From the NCBI GenBank assembly GCA_016182385.1, contig JACPGV010000002.1, positions 55,553-119,552 of the forward strand: DNA of 64,000 bases, in the 5' to 3' direction. Below are positions 4,234 through 61,685 of this stretch, piece by piece; positions within the stretch are counted from its first letter, which is position 1, and the number at the start of each line of letters is the position of its first letter. The position numbers and the translations under genes were made by a program. The notes below the pieces were generated by a model. The model made no database searches. It saw only the letters and a list, made by a program, of their open reading frames with translations, and had not been told where the DNA came from. The DNA is from Candidatus Moraniibacteriota bacterium (GTDB lineage Bacteria; Patescibacteriota; Minisyncoccia; Moranbacterales; UBA1568).

Positions 4234-4989
4234 GTGTATAATGAAACTATGGGTCTCATTGCCACACTGATAGCTTTTTTTCTTTGTATCCTGGGAGTAG
4301 GGTATTTTTACTTTGGCATGGATACGAAAGAGGTGACGGTTCATAATGAACAATCCGGCATAACAGGCGGGCTGGCTCGTTATGAAGAAACAAAAAATGC
4401 TGCGTTGGAGATAAAAGAGATTCTTGAACAAAAGGCATTGGATACCGTCGAAGAGGGAGTAGAAATTCATCAACAAGAAAAAGAGAATGTTCAAGAAAAG
4501 AAGGAAGAGAGTGGTAAAGAGGCGAGTGTACAGATCATCGAGCGACTGATGGGTTCTGGTTTTGAAGTGCCGAAAAATAAACGGAAGATTGATACGATTG
4601 TTCTCCACTCTTCTTATGATGCTTTGGGAAAAGATCCGTATGCTGTGGCGGGACTTATTAAGGAATATGAAGAATATGGTGTTTCGACGCATTATCTTAT
4701 CGATCGTAAGGGGGCGGTTTATCGGTTGGTGATTGATGAGAATATCGCCTATCACGCGGGAGCATCCAAAATGCCCGATGGCAGAGTTGACGCGAATAAT
4801 TTTTCTCTTGGTATCGAAATAATGAATACAGAAACTGAACAATATACCAAAGCGCAGCATGATGCTCTTCGTGCCTTGATTGCATATCTTAAAGATCGGC
4901 ACCCGATCGCTTTTGTCGTTGGTCATAAAGATATCGCTCCTCAGCGAAAAACTGATCCATGGAATTTTGATTGGAAAAAGTTGCAGTGA
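4234..4989 (+). CDS. N-acetylmuramoyl-L-alanine amidase (Amidase_2/PGRP, AmpD-like) carrying an N-terminal membrane anchor.
   Basis: TVLHSS, HYLIDRKGAVYRL, AYHAG and VGHKDIAPQRKTDP match Amidase_2 zinc-amidase motifs. An N-terminal TM helix is present. The start is either GTG at 4234 or ATG at 4249, and a TATAAT box lies at 4236-4241. Confidence 0.8.
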   Translation: MYNETMGLIATLIAFFLCILGVGYFYFGMDTKEVTVHNEQSGITGGLARYEETKNAALEIKEILEQKALDTVEEGVEIHQQEKENVQEKKEESGKEASVQIIERLMGSGFEVPKNKRKIDTIVLHSSYDALGKDPYAVAGLIKEYEEYGVSTHYLIDRKGAVYRLVIDENIAYHAGASKMPDGRVDANNFSLGIEIMNTETEQYTKAQHDALRALIAYLKDRHPIAFVVGHKDIAPQRKTDPWNFDWKKLQ

Positions 4990-5019
4990 TTTTTTGGGAA
5001 TTATTTTAAATAATCGTTT

Positions 5020-5316
5020 ATGGGATACGTGTTTTTTTTGGAAACCAAAAAAGAGGAGTCTTCTCTTTCGCTCGTACGGGAGGACGTGTTGATAGCGGCA
5101 AAGAAGTGGCGTGAATCACGGGATATGGGAAAACAGCTTTTTTCCGCGATAGATGAACTTCTTCTCCAATATGGCTTACAGGCCGGTGATATCGGTGATT
5201 TTGTTGTGCGATCTTCTTTGCCTTCAGTGTATACGGGAGTGCGTATTGCTGAGACAGTGAAGAAGGTGTATACTTTTGGTGTGATGCATCCTTCTTCCTC
5301 GACAACTTTGAAATGA
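5020..5316 (+). CDS. Truncated TsaB (YeaZ)-like protein containing the N-terminal domain only, 98 aa.
   Basis: LSLVREDVLIAAKKW ... KQLFSAIDELLLQYGLQAGDIGDFVVRSSLPSVYTGVRIAETV aligns with the TsaB N-terminus (ILAIDTATE...HAEHLLPMIDEVL...GPGSFTGVRIG). No C-terminal half follows in any frame. Confidence 0.5.
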   Translation: MGYVFFLETKKEESSLSLVREDVLIAAKKWRESRDMGKQLFSAIDELLLQYGLQAGDIGDFVVRSSLPSVYTGVRIAETVKKVYTFGVMHPSSSTTLK

Positions 5317-5360
5317 AAAAAAGAAGGAGGGTGGGAAATATGATACAAGATTTTTCTTTT

Positions 5361-5390
5361 AGCGGCTTTTTAAGCCATTTTTTGGTTTTT
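5361..5390 (+). terminator. Intrinsic terminator ending the amidase/TsaB-like transcription unit.
   Basis: ggctt-ttt-aagcc hairpin followed by a T-run (attttttggttttt). Confidence 0.45.
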
Positions 5391-5392
5391 AT

Positions 5393-5421
5393 TTGACAAG
5401 AAAAACAAACATTGTTACACT
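5393..5421 (+). promoter_or_regulatory. Sigma70-like promoter upstream of rpoB, followed by a leader of about 225 nt.
   Basis: TTGACA, 17 nt, then TACACT. Confidence 0.4.
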
Positions 5422-5646
5422 CAAACGTATTGTTTTGAAAAGCAGTTGACTTTCTGTCTCGTATCGCCTTTGGGTGAAAGGTCTATGGCGAGACCGAGTT
5501 GGAATCGTTGCTTAGAGAGAGCAGCTAATTTTTCCAACAGAATGGAGCGCATACACGCCCCTTATACCAAGTAAATAATTTATCCGATAATCTCACTTTC
5601 CCTACTTATCTTTATTGATAAGGAGTGTGGACGTGAGGGTGTTTTT

Positions 5647-9066
<3,420 letters not shown>

Positions 9067-21344: not shown

Positions 21345-23402
<2,058 letters not shown>

Positions 23403-23499
23403 CCCTTTGCTTGACCAAGCCTTTTTTGTATGGTATCGTATGGAAACTTATGAAGGATGATCGTTTTTGCTGGAGAGTCATTTGTTTGAGGTGTTCTTT

Positions 23500-23820
23500 A
23501 TGAAGATGGCACTTGAAAATATCCAATCTCTGATTCGTTGCCCGGTCTGCAATAAAAAATATCGGTCAATGAAGATGCTCGTTCTTGATGAGGACGATAA
23601 AAAGACAACCTTGCATCTTTCTTGCGAAGGATGTAAGGCGTCGTCGATTGTTTTCGTGTCAATGGGACAGTTTGGCGTAGTCAGTCTTGGTTTTCTTACT
23701 GACCTCAAACAGAGTGAAGCGAAAACGGTATTTTCGGAAGAGGTTGTTTCTACGGACCAAGTGATTGAAGCCCATCAGTTTTTGAAACAGTATACCGGGG
23801 GGGTTGAAGCATTTTTGTAA
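23500..23820 (+). CDS. Small hypothetical zinc-ribbon protein with CxxC...CxxC.
   Basis: LIRCPVCNKKYRSMKMLVLDEDDKKTTLHLSCEGCKAS contains 4 Cys. No confident family assignment was possible. Confidence 0.35.
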   Translation: MKMALENIQSLIRCPVCNKKYRSMKMLVLDEDDKKTTLHLSCEGCKASSIVFVSMGQFGVVSLGFLTDLKQSEAKTVFSEEVVSTDQVIEAHQFLKQYTGGVEAFL

Positions 23821-23858: not shown

Positions 23859-24536
23859 ATGGCAGAGTTACTCTTACAAGTAAAGAATCGTGAGGCAGCA
23901 GGAAAAGATTTGTATGCGATGCGAAAGCAAGGTTTTATCCCGGCAGTGCTTTATGGTCATGGTGTTAAGCAACAGATGTTTTGGGTTCGACATATTGACT
24001 TCGTTAAGCTTTACGTCAAGGCCGGCGAAAGCAGTATTGTCGAAGTAGCGCCTGAGAAGGGGAAGGTAGTGAATGTTATTATTCATGATGTCCAAACCGA
24101 CCCGCTTTCCAACCATTACGAACACGTTGATTTTTTTCAGGTACGTATGGACGAGAAACTCGAAACGCACGTGCCGCTTGAATTTGTCGGTGAGGCGCCG
24201 GCTGTTCGAGAATTGGGCGGTATTCTCGTGAAGCCACTTGAAGAAGTGCTGATCAGTTGTTTACCGAAGGATTTGCCTCGTGTTATCGCGGTGGATATTT
24301 CTTTATTGAAAACATTTGATGATCATATTCAAATCAAAGATATAGTGATTCCAGCCGGTGTGGAAATCTTGGCGGACAAGGAAATGGCTATCGTTCTTGT
24401 CGAGCCGCCACGCACGGAGTCAGAAATGGCCGCTCTTGATGAGAAGGTAGAAGGCGACGTAACAAAAGTCGAGGGCGTTGTCAAAGAAAGCGCCACGGAG
24501 ACTCCCTCTGTCACGGAAAAAGAAGGGGGAAAGTAA
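23859..24536 (+). CDS. rplY: 50S ribosomal protein L25, general stress protein Ctc form.
   Basis: The N-terminal L25 fold (NREAAGKDLYAMRKQGFIPAVLYGHG) plus the Ctc C-terminal domain and an acidic tail are present. Confidence 0.8.
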   Translation: MAELLLQVKNREAAGKDLYAMRKQGFIPAVLYGHGVKQQMFWVRHIDFVKLYVKAGESSIVEVAPEKGKVVNVIIHDVQTDPLSNHYEHVDFFQVRMDEKLETHVPLEFVGEAPAVRELGGILVKPLEEVLISCLPKDLPRVIAVDISLLKTFDDHIQIKDIVIPAGVEILADKEMAIVLVEPPRTESEMAALDEKVEGDVTKVEGVVKESATETPSVTEKEGGK

Positions 24537-24564
24537 AGCGGGAAGAAAATAGTAGTATTAAAAG

Positions 24565-24595
24565 CGCTCAGAGTTCCTATTCTGGGCGTTTTTGA
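24565..24595 (+). terminator. Probable terminator after rplY.
   Basis: The hairpin cgctcag...ctgggcg, with one mismatch, is followed by TTTTT. Confidence 0.4.
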
Positions 24596-24610
24596 ATTAA
24601 ATTCTTTTTA

Positions 24611-24823
24611 TTGACAAGAGATTGTTTTTTTGCTATAATTAAAGGTCGTAAAATATTTACAATTTGAGGCGATAAGTTTCTGTTTTCAGGGCTGAAGAAG
24701 GCATCCCTCCTAGCTTTTTTTGGCTGAAATGTATGAAGTGATGATTTTTTCATCATTTTATCGCCTGAAGGCAGAAACTTACTGCCGCAATATTCCGCGC
24801 ATCTGAAAAGGCGCGGTTTTTTT
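24611..24823 (+). ncRNA. Candidate orphan small RNA gene: a consensus promoter, a structured transcript of about 175 nt and an intrinsic terminator. Its identity is unknown; a 6S-like RNA is one possibility.
   Basis: TTGACA (24611-16), 17 nt, then TATAAT (24634-39). Long-range complementarity ggcgataa (24669-76) with ttatcgcc (24756-63). Internal hairpins gtgatgatttttt/catcat and ggcag-aaactta-ctgcc, and a repeated CUGAAG(A)AGGCA motif. Terminator ccgcgc-atctgaaaag-gcgcgg plus TTTTTTT (24795-24823). No downstream + strand gene, because pth and the LCP gene are on the minus strand. Confidence 0.5.
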
Positions 24824-24831
24824 ATGATGAA

Positions 24832-25374
24832 TTATGGATTGATGAGCCGAAGCACTTCTTCCTTGATGGTTGGAAAGAGAGCGGAAAGCGTAGTGTATTC
24901 ATCATTGGAAAAATCTTGAAGAACAAAATCGTGTATGGGTAGACAAGTGTCGGGAGTTTCTTTTGGACGACCGACACCAAGACGGATGCGATAGAAATGT
25001 TGACTGCCGATTTTATCAATAATATCTTGGACACCATTGTGGCCAGCGGCGCGCGATGAAGACGTTATCTTGTATGTTCCGAGCGGGATATCGATATCGT
25101 CGTGAAGTACGATGATGTCCGAGGAGGTGAGCTTATAAAAAGAAAGAAGTTTCAAAACCGCTTCACCGGAAGCGTTCATATACGTCAGGGGCTTGGCGAA
25201 AAGAATTTTTTCATGGAAGAGGGTGGTGCTTCCTATTTCGGCAGACATTTTTGTATCACGCGTAAGCGGCGCGTCACAAAGTGCGTCTCGAAGAAAATCA
25301 ATACAAAGAAATCCGGCATTGTGACGGGTGTGCTCATATGATTTTCCGGGATTACCAAGTCCGATAATGAGTTT
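24832..25374 (-). CDS. pth: Peptidyl-tRNA hydrolase.
   Basis: MKLIIGLGNPGKSYEHTRHNAGF... matches the canonical Pth N-terminus. The start is taken at the internal ATG at 25374. Confidence 0.9.
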   Translation of the reverse strand, partial: KLIIGLGNPGKSYEHTRHNAGFLCIDFLRDALCDAPLTRDTKMSAEIGSTTLFHEKILFAKPLTYMNASGEAVLKLLSFYKLTSSDIIVLHDDIDIPLGTYKITSSSRAAGHNGVQDIIDKIGSQHFYRIRLGVGRPKETPDTCLPIHDFVLQDFSNDEYTTLSALFPTIKEEVLRLINP

Positions 25375-25381
25375 CATAAAG

Positions 25382-26950
25382 TTAGCGAATATTATACTGA
25401 GAGGAAAAGGGTTCCTCAAGAAATATTTCTTCTTTTTCTTCTCGTAGGCCGAAAGTTTCCTCGAAATTTAAACTTTGACCGAGATTTTTCCCGATAACCA
25501 TGATGATATCTGACGTATCGCGATCGGGCAAAGAAGAATGAAGAGAAAGGGTCTGCTCGAGGGAAAACTTTTTCAGAAGAGCATCGATACTGAATGATTT
25601 TTGCGGAACACTTCTATCTGTAATCATACTCTGTTCTGGCTGGTTTTCCAAAATGCCGAGAAGAGTGATGTTTTCTTTTGCAAAACTGAGAGTTTCGATC
25701 ATAAAATCACGTATTTTTTTTGCCGCAAGGCTGTCTTCTTCGGCGTATAAAAGAGTAATGGTAGCATGTTCTTCCTCGATATTTTTTTGATTCATATTGC
25801 GCGTATCGAGATGAAAAATATTTTCATTCACCTCGCGGATTTCTTTCCAGTTGCCGGTACGGGGAACAAGAATGAAAGCGTTTATCGTTCCGACGGGAAC
25901 ATGGGAAACTCGGAGAAGACTTTCTTTTTTCCAAGCATCGACAACAAAGGAGGTGATGTTTTCTGTGTCGATTGTTTTGGCCAGACGGAGAAATTCTTCG
26001 ATATCTTCAAGGGTCATATCGGTAGTGACATTTTCCCCAAGGGTATTAAGAAGATCATTGACGGTAAAAACATTGAGAAAAGTACGTAAAGAGAAGGCTT
26101 TGTCCTTGACGGCTTGCAGAACTTGTTGTTGGCGTTTGGCGCGACCAAAATCTCCCTCTGGGTCGTCGTGTCGTTCTCGCACATATTTGAGGGTTGTGGC
26201 GCCGTCAAGAATATGCCAACCCTTTTTTAGAGAAAACGTTTCATAACTGTAATTTTTTCCGGGGTAACGCGTATCATAAAAATCTCTCTGTGCCTCAATG
26301 GCGATACCGCCAAGCGTATCAATTGTTTTTTCGAAACCGTCAAAATCAATCATGAAAAAATAGTGGAGAGGTTGCCCGATAATGTGTTCGATAGAAGAGC
26401 GTACGATATGTAATTCGCCGCCTTCACGGAGATCATATTGATAGAGCGCGTTTACTTTTGTGGAAAGGTTTGTATTTTGTATGGGAACGTAGAGGTCGCG
26501 AGGGAGAGAAAGGAGGGCCACTTTTTTTGTATGGGTATCAATACTCATAATCATAACGGTATCGGTAAGATTTTTCCCTGGATAGCGCTCGCCCGCTCTT
26601 CCGAGAAGAAGAATATTGATACGACCGTCTTTTTCGCCTCGTAAAAGAAAATCTTCTCCATCAACAAAAGAAACAGCCAGACGTTTGAGATCGGAAAGAA
26701 GCGATGGTCGAGCAGTATTTTGAAATTGGATATGGTGTCCTATAAAAAGGCTTTTCCCGAAAAGAAAGAAGAAGGTAAAAATGAAAAGAAAAAGTAGTAT
26801 ACTGGCGCCTCCAAGAAAAAAGCGAGTTTGTTTTTTCGTTGGCGTAACGGATGTTTTGGTGCGCGCGGGAAGGTTTTTTTGTACCGAAGAAGAAGGTTTT
26901 TCTTTGGGAAGATGAGGGGGAGTTTTTGGTACGCGGCGAATGCTATCCAT
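25382..26950 (-). CDS. LytR-CpsA-Psr (LCP) family cell-wall glycopolymer transferase with a C-terminal LytR_C-like domain.
   Basis: An N-terminal cytoplasmic tail and TM segment are followed by the LCP core (INILLLGRAGERYPGKNLTDTVMIMSIDTHTKKVALLSLPRDLYV). Confidence 0.8.
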   Translation of the reverse strand: MDSIRRVPKTPPHLPKEKPSSSVQKNLPARTKTSVTPTKKQTRFFLGGASILLFLFIFTFFFLFGKSLFIGHHIQFQNTARPSLLSDLKRLAVSFVDGEDFLLRGEKDGRINILLLGRAGERYPGKNLTDTVMIMSIDTHTKKVALLSLPRDLYVPIQNTNLSTKVNALYQYDLREGGELHIVRSSIEHIIGQPLHYFFMIDFDGFEKTIDTLGGIAIEAQRDFYDTRYPGKNYSYETFSLKKGWHILDGATTLKYVRERHDDPEGDFGRAKRQQQVLQAVKDKAFSLRTFLNVFTVNDLLNTLGENVTTDMTLEDIEEFLRLAKTIDTENITSFVVDAWKKESLLRVSHVPVGTINAFILVPRTGNWKEIREVNENIFHLDTRNMNQKNIEEEHATITLLYAEEDSLAAKKIRDFMIETLSFAKENITLLGILENQPEQSMITDRSVPQKSFSIDALLKKFSLEQTLSLHSSLPDRDTSDIIMVIGKNLGQSLNFEETFGLREEKEEIFLEEPFSSQYNIR

Positions 26951-29519: not shown

Positions 29520-29635
29520 GAGTTGAGTAAAAGATGTTTTTTTGGAAAACATCCGAATGATTTGAAGAGGGATTCGTATTGTTCGGATGTGGTTCATGAA
29601 AAGTATGAATCGCACAGGAAAGGAGGTCGTTTGAT

Positions 29636-29884
29636 ATGATACAAGTACGAAAAAAAGAACGAGAAACCGCTGAAAGCCTTATTCGGCGTTTTTCACGACG
29701 TGTTCAGCAAAGCGGTGTGTTGAAACAGGTGCGTAAGATGCGCTTTCGTCAGGAAGAAAAAAGTCGCGGAAAACGAAGAGACGAGGCCTTATATAAAGTA
29801 AAGATTCGTAAAGAAATCAATCGTCTGAAAAAACTCGGAAAATTTGATGAAGACGCTTTGCGCGACATCAAAAAGAGAATGTAA
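29636..29884 (+). CDS. rpsU: 30S ribosomal protein S21.
   Basis: MIQVRKKERETAESLIRRFSRRVQQSGVLKQVRKMRFRQEEKSRGKRR matches the S21 pattern (V...E..ALRRFKR.....G.L.E.RRR.FYEKP). Confidence 0.8.
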   Translation: MIQVRKKERETAESLIRRFSRRVQQSGVLKQVRKMRFRQEEKSRGKRRDEALYKVKIRKEINRLKKLGKFDEDALRDIKKRM

Positions 29885-38229: not shown

Positions 38230-38303
38230 CGGGCTGTAGTATACCGGTAGTACGCGTCCATGGGGTGGATGTAGACCGGGTTCAATTCCCGGCAGCCCGA
38301 CCA
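38230..38303 (+). tRNA. tRNA-Pro (anticodon GGG), with the CCA end encoded.
   Basis: Cloverleaf folded by hand. Acceptor stem CGGGCUG/CAGCCCG, D-arm GUA..UAC, anticodon stem CGUCC/GGAUG with loop AUGGGGU (U33, GGG, G37), T-arm CCGGG-UUCAAUU-CCCGG, discriminator A plus CCA. Confidence 0.75.
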
Positions 38304-58933: not shown

Positions 58934-59731
58934 ATGCAGAAGACATTTTATGTGGTGGGTAATTTGAAAATGAATATGTTGTCCTGTGATGAAGCGGGAC
59001 AATATCTTTCTGTTTTGAAGCGGGAAATGCGTGGAAGAGAGTTTTCTTTCACTCAAGGAGTTATTTGTCCGTCTTTTTTGTATCTTTCTCTTTTTGATCA
59101 TCTGCCAAGCGGACTGACAAAGGGCGCGCAAAATCTTTTTCCGGAAAAAAGCGGCGCGTATACAGGAGAGATTTCCCCGGTTATGTTGAAAAATGATGGC
59201 GTGACACATGTCATTCTTGGTCATAGTGAGCGGCGCTTGTACGCGGGTGAGACCGATGAAGATGTGCGAGAGAAGGTTTTGGCGGCTTTAAAATATCATT
59301 TGGTACCGGTTGTGTGTATCGGTGAAACGAAAGAAGAAAGAGCGCGAGAAGAAACAGAAGAAGTGCTTTTGCGTCAGGTGAAAGCTGTTTTTGATGGACT
59401 TTCCAAATTGCAGGCGGAAAGTATTATGATAGCGTATGAACCACGTTGGGCGATTGGAACGGATGTTTTGCCGACGACGAGTGAGATTCTTCAGGTACGG
59501 GTCTTCCTTCGTAAGTTTTTGACGGAAACTTTTGATGCTTCCGTCGCGGAACGGGTTGTTATTTTGTATGGGGGATCCGTTAAGAGTTCTTTTTTGCCTG
59601 CGATTTCCTGGGAAGCTCAAGTGGATGGGGTTTTGGTTGGGCGGGAGAGTTTGTTTCCTTATGAATTGGTAAAAATGATGGAAATGTTTGAGAATGAGGC
59701 AAAAAAAGAAAAAACAAAAAAGAGAATATGA
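58934..59731 (+). CDS. tpiA: Triosephosphate isomerase.
   Basis: VVGNLKMN, ILGHSERR, CIGETKEER, AYEPRWAIGT. An SD aaggag lies upstream. Confidence 0.9.
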   Translation: MQKTFYVVGNLKMNMLSCDEAGQYLSVLKREMRGREFSFTQGVICPSFLYLSLFDHLPSGLTKGAQNLFPEKSGAYTGEISPVMLKNDGVTHVILGHSERRLYAGETDEDVREKVLAALKYHLVPVVCIGETKEERAREETEEVLLRQVKAVFDGLSKLQAESIMIAYEPRWAIGTDVLPTTSEILQVRVFLRKFLTETFDASVAERVVILYGGSVKSSFLPAISWEAQVDGVLVGRESLFPYELVKMMEMFENEAKKEKTKKRI

Positions 59732-60680: not shown

Positions 60681-61685
60681 ATGGAAAAAAAACGTATTGC
60701 CATCAATGGTTTCGGTCGGATTGGTCGCGCGGCTTTTAAAATAGCCCTTGAAAAAAGTGACGTGGAAATTGTCGCTATTAATGATTTGACTGACGCTGAA
60801 ACACTTTCTCATTTGCTTCGTTATGATACGACGTATGGCAAGTATCGCACGGAGATTTCAGTGCGTGATAATGCGTTTGTTGTGCGTGAGCAAAAAATTC
60901 CGATATACGCTGAACCAGATCCAAAAAAATTACCATGGAAGGAGCACGCGGTTGATGTCGTATTGGAATGTACCGGACGCTTTACTGAGAGTTCTACAGC
61001 CAAACAACATATTGAGGCGGGAGCGAAAAAGGTTATTCTTTCGGCACCATCCAAGGGGGATGACGGCTCTGTTCCGACGTTTCTTATTGGTGTCAATGAT
61101 ACGCAGTATACTTCGGAGACGATTCTTTCCAATGCTTCTTGCACAACAAATTGTTTGGCGCCGGTAGCCAAGGCCCTGCACGCGGCTTTTGGAATAAAGA
61201 AAGCCATGATGACAACGGTGCACTCCTATACGGCTGATCAAAATCTTCAAGATGGTCCGCATAAGGATTGGCGGAGAGCGCGAGCGGCGGCACACAATAT
61301 CGTGCCAACCACTACCGGCGCGGCTATTTCTGTTACTCAGGTTATGCCTGAGCTGAAAGGATTGTTCGATGGTTTGGCGGTGCGTGTGCCTACGATTGTT
61401 GTTTCTCTCACGGATTTCACATTTCTTCTTGGGAAAAAGACAACAAAGGAAGAAATAAACGAAGCGTTACGAAAGGCGTCTCTTGATCCGTCCTACCAGA
61501 ACGTTCTTGCCGTGACCGAAGAATTGCTCGTTTCGTCTGATTTTATCGGGAACCCACACTCAGTCATTGTTGATTTGTCTCTTACGAAAGTTGTGGATGG
61601 AGATTTTGTCAAAGTCGTGGCGTGGTATGATAATGAATGGGGATACGCGAATCGGCTGGTGGAGATGGCACAAAAAATAATATAA
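60681..61685 (+). CDS. gap: Glyceraldehyde-3-phosphate dehydrogenase.
   Basis: INGFGRIGR; active site SNASCTTNCLAP; an SD ggag is present. Confidence 0.95.
   Translation: MEKKRIAINGFGRIGRAAFKIALEKSDVEIVAINDLTDAETLSHLLRYDTTYGKYRTEISVRDNAFVVREQKIPIYAEPDPKKLPWKEHAVDVVLECTGRFTESSTAKQHIEAGAKKVILSAPSKGDDGSVPTFLIGVNDTQYTSETILSNASCTTNCLAPVAKALHAAFGIKKAMMTTVHSYTADQNLQDGPHKDWRRARAAAHNIVPTTTGAAISVTQVMPELKGLFDGLAVRVPTIVVSLTDFTFLLGKKTTKEEINEALRKASLDPSYQNVLAVTEELLVSSDFIGNPHSVIVDLSLTKVVDGDFVKVVAWYDNEWGYANRLVEMAQKII

Follow-up and report, generated by a model that had tools for sequence, protein, structure and literature searches.

A conserved three-way-junction small RNA with an anti-Shine-Dalgarno-like loop in part of Candidatus Moranbacteria

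Introduction

The alphaproteobacterial small RNAs (sRNAs) cuckoo, CcsR, and NfeR1 display CCUCCUCCC anti-Shine-Dalgarno (anti-SD) motifs in hairpin loops and act on ribosome-binding sites (PMC4615179, PMC8034643, PMC10746234). In OLE RNA, the CCUCCU sequence of P6, identical to the core of the 16S ribosomal RNA (rRNA) tail, is a mimic of the anti-Shine-Dalgarno sequence (ASD) and a determinant of bS21 binding (PMC12054373). Here, we analyze a 64,000-nucleotide stretch of the genome of a Candidatus Moraniibacteriota bacterium (contig JACPGV010000002.1, positions 55,553 to 119,552, hereafter the window), which contains a separate gene, with a predicted transcription unit of its own, whose product is a structured non-coding RNA 165–180 nucleotides (nt) or so in length. 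The RNA is conserved in part of Candidatus Moranbacteria (Patescibacteria) and represents a new, unannotated sRNA family of a kind that is already known, namely the stand-alone bacterial sRNA with a pyrimidine-rich, anti-SD-like loop.

The Moranbacteria sRNA resembles cuckoo, CcsR, and NfeR1 in its intergenic location, its own promoter and Rho-independent terminator, its covarying stems, and the highly conserved CCUCC-type motif displayed in a hairpin loop. It shares with them, however, no similarity at the level of either sequence or covariance model. The alphaproteobacterial RNAs consist of two to three short hairpins, each with the motif, whereas the Moranbacteria sRNA presents a single motif on a long, rod-like three-way junction, and its host, unlike theirs, is an SD-poor bacterium of the Candidate Phyla Radiation (CPR). 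The likeness to OLE RNA lies in the presence of CCUCCU in a non-coding RNA. OLE RNA is about 600 nt long, belongs to Bacillota, and is membrane-associated with OapA, OapB, and OapC. Its ASD mimic is paired to an SD-like strand, whereas the motif of the Moranbacteria sRNA is single-stranded, with no conserved GGAGG-like partner strand in the consensus of the RNA, and bS21 is only a candidate ligand there. The hairpins of the Firmicute RNAs RsaE/RoxS and RNAIII are Hfq-independent regulators that direct C-rich or UCCC loop seeds against SD regions. They are not homologous to the Moranbacteria sRNA, have another architecture, and come from another phylum, and their hosts use SDs widely.

To our knowledge, almost nothing is known about regulatory and structural RNAs of the CPR, the members of which are not yet genetically tractable. 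A limited literature search on sRNAs of Moranbacteria, Patescibacteria, and the CPR, and on 6S RNA, found no description of the RNA reported here.

Results

An sRNA gene with its own promoter and terminator

The sRNA gene comprises the following elements:

24611–24616, plus strand: −35 element TTGACA of a sigma-70-type promoter
24631–24632, plus strand: TG of an extended −10 element, two bases 5′ of the −10 and within the 17-nt promoter spacer
24634–24639, plus strand: −10 element TATAAT (the whole promoter spans 24611–24639)
24645 ± 2 (approximate), plus strand: transcription start site, predicted from the position of the −10 element
24645–24665, plus strand: variable 5′ leader, which differs in length and sequence among homologues
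24666–24689 with 24765–24788, plus strand: P1, the 24-base-pair (bp) outer helix of the RNAalifold consensus
24690–24702 with 24713–24725, plus strand: P2, 13 bp, stacked coaxially on P1
24703–24712, plus strand: apical loop of P2, AUCCCUCCUA, 10 nt, near-invariant and containing CCUCCU
24726–24730, plus strand: joiner J2/3, GAAAU, invariant in 17 of 18 sequences and unpaired in the consensus
24731–24761, plus strand: hairpin P3, variable in length and sequence, with a UUCG cap in several relatives
24762–24764, plus strand: joiner J3/1, CGS (CGG in eight sequences, CGC in seven, CAG in two, GGC in one)
24795–24823, plus strand: intrinsic terminator of the sRNA (hairpin CCGCGC/GCGCGG at 24795–24816, U7 at 24817–24823)

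The promoter, which an initial annotation made from the nucleotide sequence had already described as a perfect TTGACA-17-TATAAT and the strongest of the window, is the sole 12/12 match in a promoter scan of the part of the window from 20 to 30 kb. The exact arrangement TTGACA-N16–18-TATAAT has a single instance in the entire 64 kb, where shuffled sequences give 0.03 by chance. The RNA is non-coding, has a length of about 177–178 nt when counted from ~24645/24646, and ends, as also read initially, in a clean GC hairpin (CCGCGC/GCGCGG) followed by a U tract (U7). The extensive internal pairing that had been noticed in this region is borne out by the folding energy, which is −69.7 kcal/mol for the 178-nt RNA against −40.5 ± 4.0 kcal/mol in dinucleotide shuffles (z = −7.36); none of the 200 shuffles folded as well.

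A family of 18 sequences beside pth

Using the L25 protein of the window, we retrieved 23 syntenic loci (L001–L023), one per GTDB species, nearly all of which are labelled Candidatus Moranbacteria/Moraniibacteriota or Patescibacteria. The intergenic sequence that encodes the sRNA was matched by nhmmer in 11 of them. A covariance model of 12 sequences, 125 positions, and 40 pairs (R1) assigns 99.6–118 bits to the plus strand of the nhmmer-matched loci and 22–40 bits to the minus strand, placing the plus strand about 80 bits above its complement. A spaced pattern of invariant positions was also scanned over a metagenome collection, giving 25 matches; ten are true by R1, and four of these ten duplicate known species. 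The family amounts to 18 distinct sequences that score 63–118 bits under R1. The comparison with homologous loci of related Patescibacteria that the initial annotation had suggested thus supplies 17 sequences in addition to the window copy, and the region is conserved.

All 18 copies lie 3′ of rplY, the gene of ribosomal protein L25, and directly beside the 3′ end of a convergent pth gene. In locus L014, where about 3 kb (4651–7731) is inserted between rplY and the sRNA, the latter still adjoins pth. Sixteen of the 17 full-length copies are preceded by TTGACA or TTGACT and then by a −10-like TAnnnT, most of them with an upstream TG, and a GC hairpin with a U run is found 3′ of every full-length copy. 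No recognizable promoter precedes the sRNA of L008. In the sRNA-bearing species, L25 is 56–72% identical to that of the window, and more distant loci have neither the synteny nor the sRNA. Relatives without the sRNA include MFRV01, JAHFOO01, JBBTWT01, and JBAQCV01, and several of the genomes compared stem from the Rifle and Hainich sites.

There are no paralogues in the 64-kb window, even with filters off, and in the 12 loci without the sRNA beside pth, no copy was found over roughly 4 kb around rplY. We rejected a phage or mobile origin, as the 19 pattern matches in IMG/VR viral contigs include no true copy by the covariance model.

A covarying three-way junction

Both RNAalifold and the counting of pairs lead to a conserved fold in which P1, P2, and P3 meet in a three-way junction. 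Compensatory double changes were found in 32 of the 40 modelled pairs. In P1, they affect 18 of the 24 pairs, with 92.3% of the cells paired, and in P2, 12 of the 13. At the base of P3, pairs 69–71/99–101 covary, and the body of this hairpin is different in each homologue. Overall, standard pairs occupy 91.6% of the cells, as opposed to 39–50% after the 3′ partners are slid by one to three columns, and none of 500 column shuffles reached the observed pairing values.

The 5′ strand of P1 runs into P2 without any unpaired base (consensus columns 4–27 continue into 28–40). The first pair of P2 is G·U (G24690–U24725) in 17 of the 18 sequences. On the opposite strand, this pair would be a C–A mismatch, consistent with the higher scores that R1 gives to the plus strand. 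Parts of the RNA are conserved beyond what pairing requires. The apical loop AUCCCUCCUA, which is unpaired in both the minimum free energy and the consensus structures, does not differ among 14 of the 18 sequences; the others have single changes, all of them at the first two or the last of its positions. Column identity is 97.8% in the loop and 98.9% in GAAAU, compared to 68–72% in the helices. In P1, the 5′ strand contains a conserved box, UUUCU.UCC, and the 3′ strand a conserved box, CUG.GG...GAA; within them, the stretch UUUCU.UCC/GG...GAA is kept in sequence and not in pairing alone.

Two motifs that had been read from the window by itself change their meaning in this alignment. The ggcgataa/ttatcgcc helix exists as complementarity but is not the conserved pairing, which is formed by 24666–24689 and 24765–24788; ttatcgcc corresponds to the 3′ arm of the variable hairpin P3 together with the joiner. 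The CUGAAG(A)AGGCA repeat is present as described, with one copy in the 5′ strand of P2 and the other in the 3′ strand of P1, but it is confined to the window genome. Both copies vary in relatives, and the repeat is a coincidence of this genome.

The RNA matches no catalogued class

At gathering thresholds, the only match of Rfam 15 in the whole window is a tRNA at 38230–38300. The 6S model (RF00013) has no match at E ≤ 10 on positions 24500–24900 (401 nt), nor at E ≤ 5 in L013, L017, and L044. Permissive Rfam scans of the window region and three homologue loci gave no match to signal recognition particle (SRP), RNase P, 5S, riboswitch, or ribozyme models. They returned inconsistent, sub-threshold matches to generic hairpins, miRNA precursors, leaders, and C/D snoRNAs, the best of which, to Arrc14, scored 26 bits against a threshold of 99. 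The C/D snoRNA matches derive from UGAUGA and CUGA in the variable P3 and occur in the window genome only. ARAGORN found no tRNA or tmRNA in positions 24000–25500.

Several classes could be rejected on structural or positional grounds as well. SRP (4.5S) RNA, for which there is no Rfam match, has a helix 8 with a GNAR tetraloop and with symmetric and asymmetric loops, whereas here an uninterrupted helix of 13 bp carries the 10-nt apical loop AUCCCUCCUA. A riboswitch or leader is incompatible with the convergent pth in all 18 copies and with an RNA that ends in its own terminator. The defining junction sequences of hammerhead, k-turn, loop E, TPP and glutamine riboswitches, and 5S rRNA are absent, as judged by eye in combination with the negative Rfam scans.

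A small-protein gene was rejected because the open reading frame (ORF) shifts its frame with the length of P3 and because the helices change by compensatory substitution. An ATG conserved in CUGAAAUG opens ORFs that differ in frame and length even among close relatives. The minus-strand ORFs are likewise in differing frames, and the ‘ARRDA’ peptide that they seem to share simply reflects the invariant loop read in reverse complement. L018 has no ORF of at least 25 amino acids. The view of the initial annotation that this is a stand-alone non-coding RNA of about 175 nt, and not a leader, is therefore upheld by the conserved promoter and terminator, the strong covariation, and the lack of a conserved ORF. 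So is its statement that the RNA is not SRP RNA, RNase P RNA, or tmRNA, since Rfam and ARAGORN are both negative; the comparison with Rfam covariance models that it had proposed matched no catalogued family.

Gene neighborhood

The sRNA gene is flanked by the following features:

23859–24536, plus strand: rplY (ribosomal protein L25/Ctc, two-domain TL5 type), the upstream neighbor, identified as an ORF with Pfam matches PF01386 (L25p) and PF14693 (TL5_C)
24564–24593, plus strand: rplY intrinsic terminator (GCGCUCAGAGU/AUUCUGGGCG hairpin at 24564–24588, U run to 24593)
24832–25377, minus strand: pth (peptidyl-tRNA hydrolase), the convergent downstream neighbor (longest ORF to 25419; Pfam PF01195, E = 2.7e-53)

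The region of the rplY terminator (24537–24605) folds at −22.5 kcal/mol (z = −4.3), which, together with its U run, confirms that rplY ends upstream of the sRNA in a terminator of its own, as initially proposed. On the other side, both pth and an LCP-family gene (PF03816) are encoded by the minus strand and converge on the sRNA unit. The absence of a plus-strand gene 3′ of the sRNA, also pointed out in the initial annotation, leaves nothing for a leader to regulate. No rplY terminator precedes the sRNA in L008, L017, and L023, where rplY transcripts probably run into the sRNA and end at its terminator. In most of the relatives’ copies, an A-rich linker precedes the terminator hairpin and gives a U tract on the opposite strand, from which we infer that the same element could terminate pth as well. 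In two relatives without the sRNA, the gap between rplY and pth is occupied by an unrelated long palindrome with A and T runs on its flanks, similar in appearance to a bidirectional terminator (L005, ~4830–4945; L006, ~4790–4870).

Several features of the surrounding genes were recorded in passing. Read from a TTG at 25419, the pth ORF has its greatest length and shares 38 nt (25382–25419) with the end of the LCP gene. The more likely start is the ATG at 25377, which has a TATAAT-like box before it and from which the Pfam match begins at residue 3. Between gyrB and rplY, positions 23467–23820 encode a protein of 117 amino acids that contains two zinc-ribbon-like CxxC pairs and matches no Pfam family, and its gene is kept in nearly all related loci, with or without the sRNA. 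The gyrB gene is continuous in the window (21354–23402). The tblastn matches of GyrB fall into two to three pieces in L007, L015, L022, L029, and L040, with some of the pieces in relatives more than 1 kb apart, which suggests an intein or other insertion in the gyrB genes of these relatives.

Shine-Dalgarno usage and rpsU

At a threshold of −7 kcal/mol or lower, 4 of the 71 ORF starts of the window pair with the ASD ACCUCCUU, which is the same rate as that of internal mock sites (4 of 54). The window genome is essentially SD-free or SD-poor. By far the strongest SD of the window belongs to rpsU, the gene of ribosomal protein bS21:

29620–29627, plus strand: extended SD of rpsU, AAGGAGGU, the strongest SD in the window and a candidate target of the sRNA
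29636–29884, plus strand: rpsU (bS21), 82 amino acids, identified by comparison with solved ribosome structures

This SD pairs with the canonical ASD at −11.2 kcal/mol and with the loop of the sRNA at −10.6 kcal/mol, ranking at the top of the 71 ORF starts for both. In all six distinct sRNA-bearing genomes with rpsU in the fetched locus, rpsU is preceded by GAAAGGAGGU (GGGAGGU in one of them); the positions of the conserved SD in relatives include L025 6527, L040 800(−), and L041 666(−). A second conserved target was not found among the GGAGG-type sites of the related loci, and the relatives do not keep a GAGGGAU that precedes rpsU in the window. The few other genes with a recognizable SD, AAAGGAGA, are those of triosephosphate isomerase and glyceraldehyde-3-phosphate dehydrogenase (58934–59731, 60681–61685; Pfam).

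In Flavobacteriia, where bS21, bS18, and bS6 together sequester the ASD, genes are devoid of SDs, and a strong SD is retained on rpsU for autoregulation (PMC7797042, PMC9976891). The scarcity of SDs in the window genome and the strong rpsU SD, which is conserved in relatives, mirror this system of ASD sequestration and rpsU autoregulation. A limited literature search found no report of such an SD-poor/rpsU-SD system in Patescibacteria. The bS21 of the window has Tyr53, a possible counterpart of the signature Tyr54 of Flavobacterium bS21, which is among the residues that sequester the ASD in Flavobacterium johnsoniae.

Discussion

The explanation that we favor, tentatively and at less than even chances, is that the sRNA acts in trans as an ASD mimic by pairing with rare strong SDs. 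Its working part would be the loop AUCCCUCCUA, which resembles the 3′ tail of 16S rRNA (..AUCACCUCCUU..) and in which CCUCCU is the sequence of the 16S ASD core, the 16S 3′ end of the host itself lying outside the window. The exposed loop would base-pair with a few strong ribosome-binding sites of the GGAGG type and block the access of the 30S subunit, and rpsU would be the prime candidate among its targets. The helices and the junction would form a stable, nuclease-resistant scaffold, possibly with a site of protein or tertiary contact, and the long stacked helices may confer stability in an organism that probably has no Hfq-type chaperones.

A number of observations weigh against this proposal. 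The identity with the ASD core on which it is built extends over 6 nt, and the canonical ASD of the lineage is deduced from the rpsU SD AAGGAGGU alone. The predicted pairing with rpsU is just 6 bp (AGGAGG:CCUCCU), to which the invariant flanks of the loop core (AUC on the 5′ side, A on the 3′ side) add none. Across the window, sequences complementary to the loop show no enrichment, with 42 matches against 41.4 expected. The loop core is the same in every copy, which leaves no variation by which to trace covariation with a target. A simple antisense model leaves the invariant GAAAU and the conserved sequence of P1 unexplained. L015, in which there is no sRNA copy within 4 kb of rplY, keeps a strong GGAGG (5342(−)) just 5′ of an rpsU-like ORF start, and the sRNA is thus not obligatorily coupled to the rpsU SD. 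Finally, the close relatives L001, L003, L005, and L006 have the same order of rplY and pth without the sRNA, and the gap between these genes contains a terminator or an unrelated palindrome only. The sRNA gene would therefore appear to be either dispensable or movable.

A closely related alternative is that the loop is recognized by a protein. As it contains CCUCCU and resembles AUCACCUCCU, the loop might mimic the single-stranded 16S 3′ tail and bind a tail-recognizing protein, bS21 being the first candidate, as a decoy or reservoir that would buffer the pool of free protein or tie it to the status of the ribosome. We consider this unlikely, though by no means negligible: the invariance of the loop exceeds the needs of SD pairing, the junction, in its invariance, and the conserved box of P1 have the look of a site contacted by a protein, and the model would fit both the binding of bS21 to OLE RNA through a CCUCCU ASD mimic (PMC12054373) and the Flavobacteriia-like signature of few SDs and a strong rpsU SD (PMC7797042). 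The OLE mimic, however, sits in an SD–ASD-like duplex, whereas the Moranbacteria motif is an unpaired loop, and the equivalent of A1534 is a C or missing. Era, YbeY, or a KH-domain protein would be further conceivable partners of a decoy loop. Many strongly covarying orphan RNAs of bacteria prove to be scaffolds of ribonucleoprotein particles (RNPs) or to be ligand-binding or catalytic. An assignment of the Moranbacteria sRNA to one of these kinds, in which the active site would lie in the junction (the G·U pair, GAAAU, CGS, and the P1 box) and the loop would be no more than a secondary contact, is doubtful but deserves attention, considering that the nucleotides of the junction vary no more than those of the loop (98.9% identity) and that part of P1 is conserved in sequence and not in pairing alone. 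It has to contend with the absence of any Rfam riboswitch or ribozyme match, even a weak and consistent one, across four homologues, of a co-directional downstream gene to regulate, and of a protein gene within the loci that co-varies with the presence or absence of the sRNA.

The position of the gene invites a purely local explanation, without a function in trans, in which the element would insulate the convergent rplY and pth from each other, terminate transcription from both sides, or act as antisense RNA to pth read-through. The fixed place beside the 3′ end of pth in 18 of 18 loci, the A-rich linker that is a U tract on the pth strand, the absence of a terminator of rplY’s own in L008, L017, and L023, where its transcript would end at that of the sRNA, and the unrelated long palindromes that occupy the gaps of L005 and L006 instead all speak for such a role. 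A terminator, however, needs no consensus promoter, no covarying three-way junction of 125 nt, and no invariant loop and joiner, which makes this explanation improbable. A variant of it, in which the RNA would be an L25-binding mimic of 5S rRNA in the 3′ region of rplY, conflicts with the lack of a loop-E-like internal loop and of a 5S rRNA match. The identity that the initial annotation had considered, a 6S-like RNA that would sequester the RNA polymerase holoenzyme by mimicking an open promoter, is the least probable. The two RNAs are alike in length (~177 nt), in their largely double-stranded, rod-like shape, in a strong promoter, and probably in abundance, but neither the region nor the three homologue loci match the Rfam 6S model. 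Furthermore, no 5′-strand base is unpaired between P1 and P2, and the 3′ side alone carries GAAAU, P3, and CGS, so that the fold has neither a central bubble nor a strand that could template a product RNA. The patchy distribution of the sRNA, which is missing from close relatives at the syntenic site, is a further difference, and the 6S-like reading is not sustained.

The ASD-mimic proposal can be extended to the translation regime of the host. In this extended form, which we regard as quite improbable, a CPR lineage would have independently evolved a Bacteroidia-like regime of few SDs and a strong rpsU SD, to which an abundant RNA mimic of the anti-SD would have been added. This mimic would either compete for the rpsU SD with ribosomes that lack bS21 or sequester free bS21. 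If this were true, the RNA would be an RNA-level controller of the SD-blindness of the ribosome and of bS21 homeostasis.

The locus provides a strongly covarying RNA family whose ends and fold are defined and in which the loop is an obvious candidate for the functional module. Should the anti-SD reading be wrong, the RNA would still be a well-supported orphan structured RNA that merits an Rfam entry. If it is true, the anti-SD mimic would link the anti-SD-loop sRNAs, the binding of bS21 by the ASD mimic of OLE RNA, and the autoregulation of rpsU in the SD-blind Bacteroidia.

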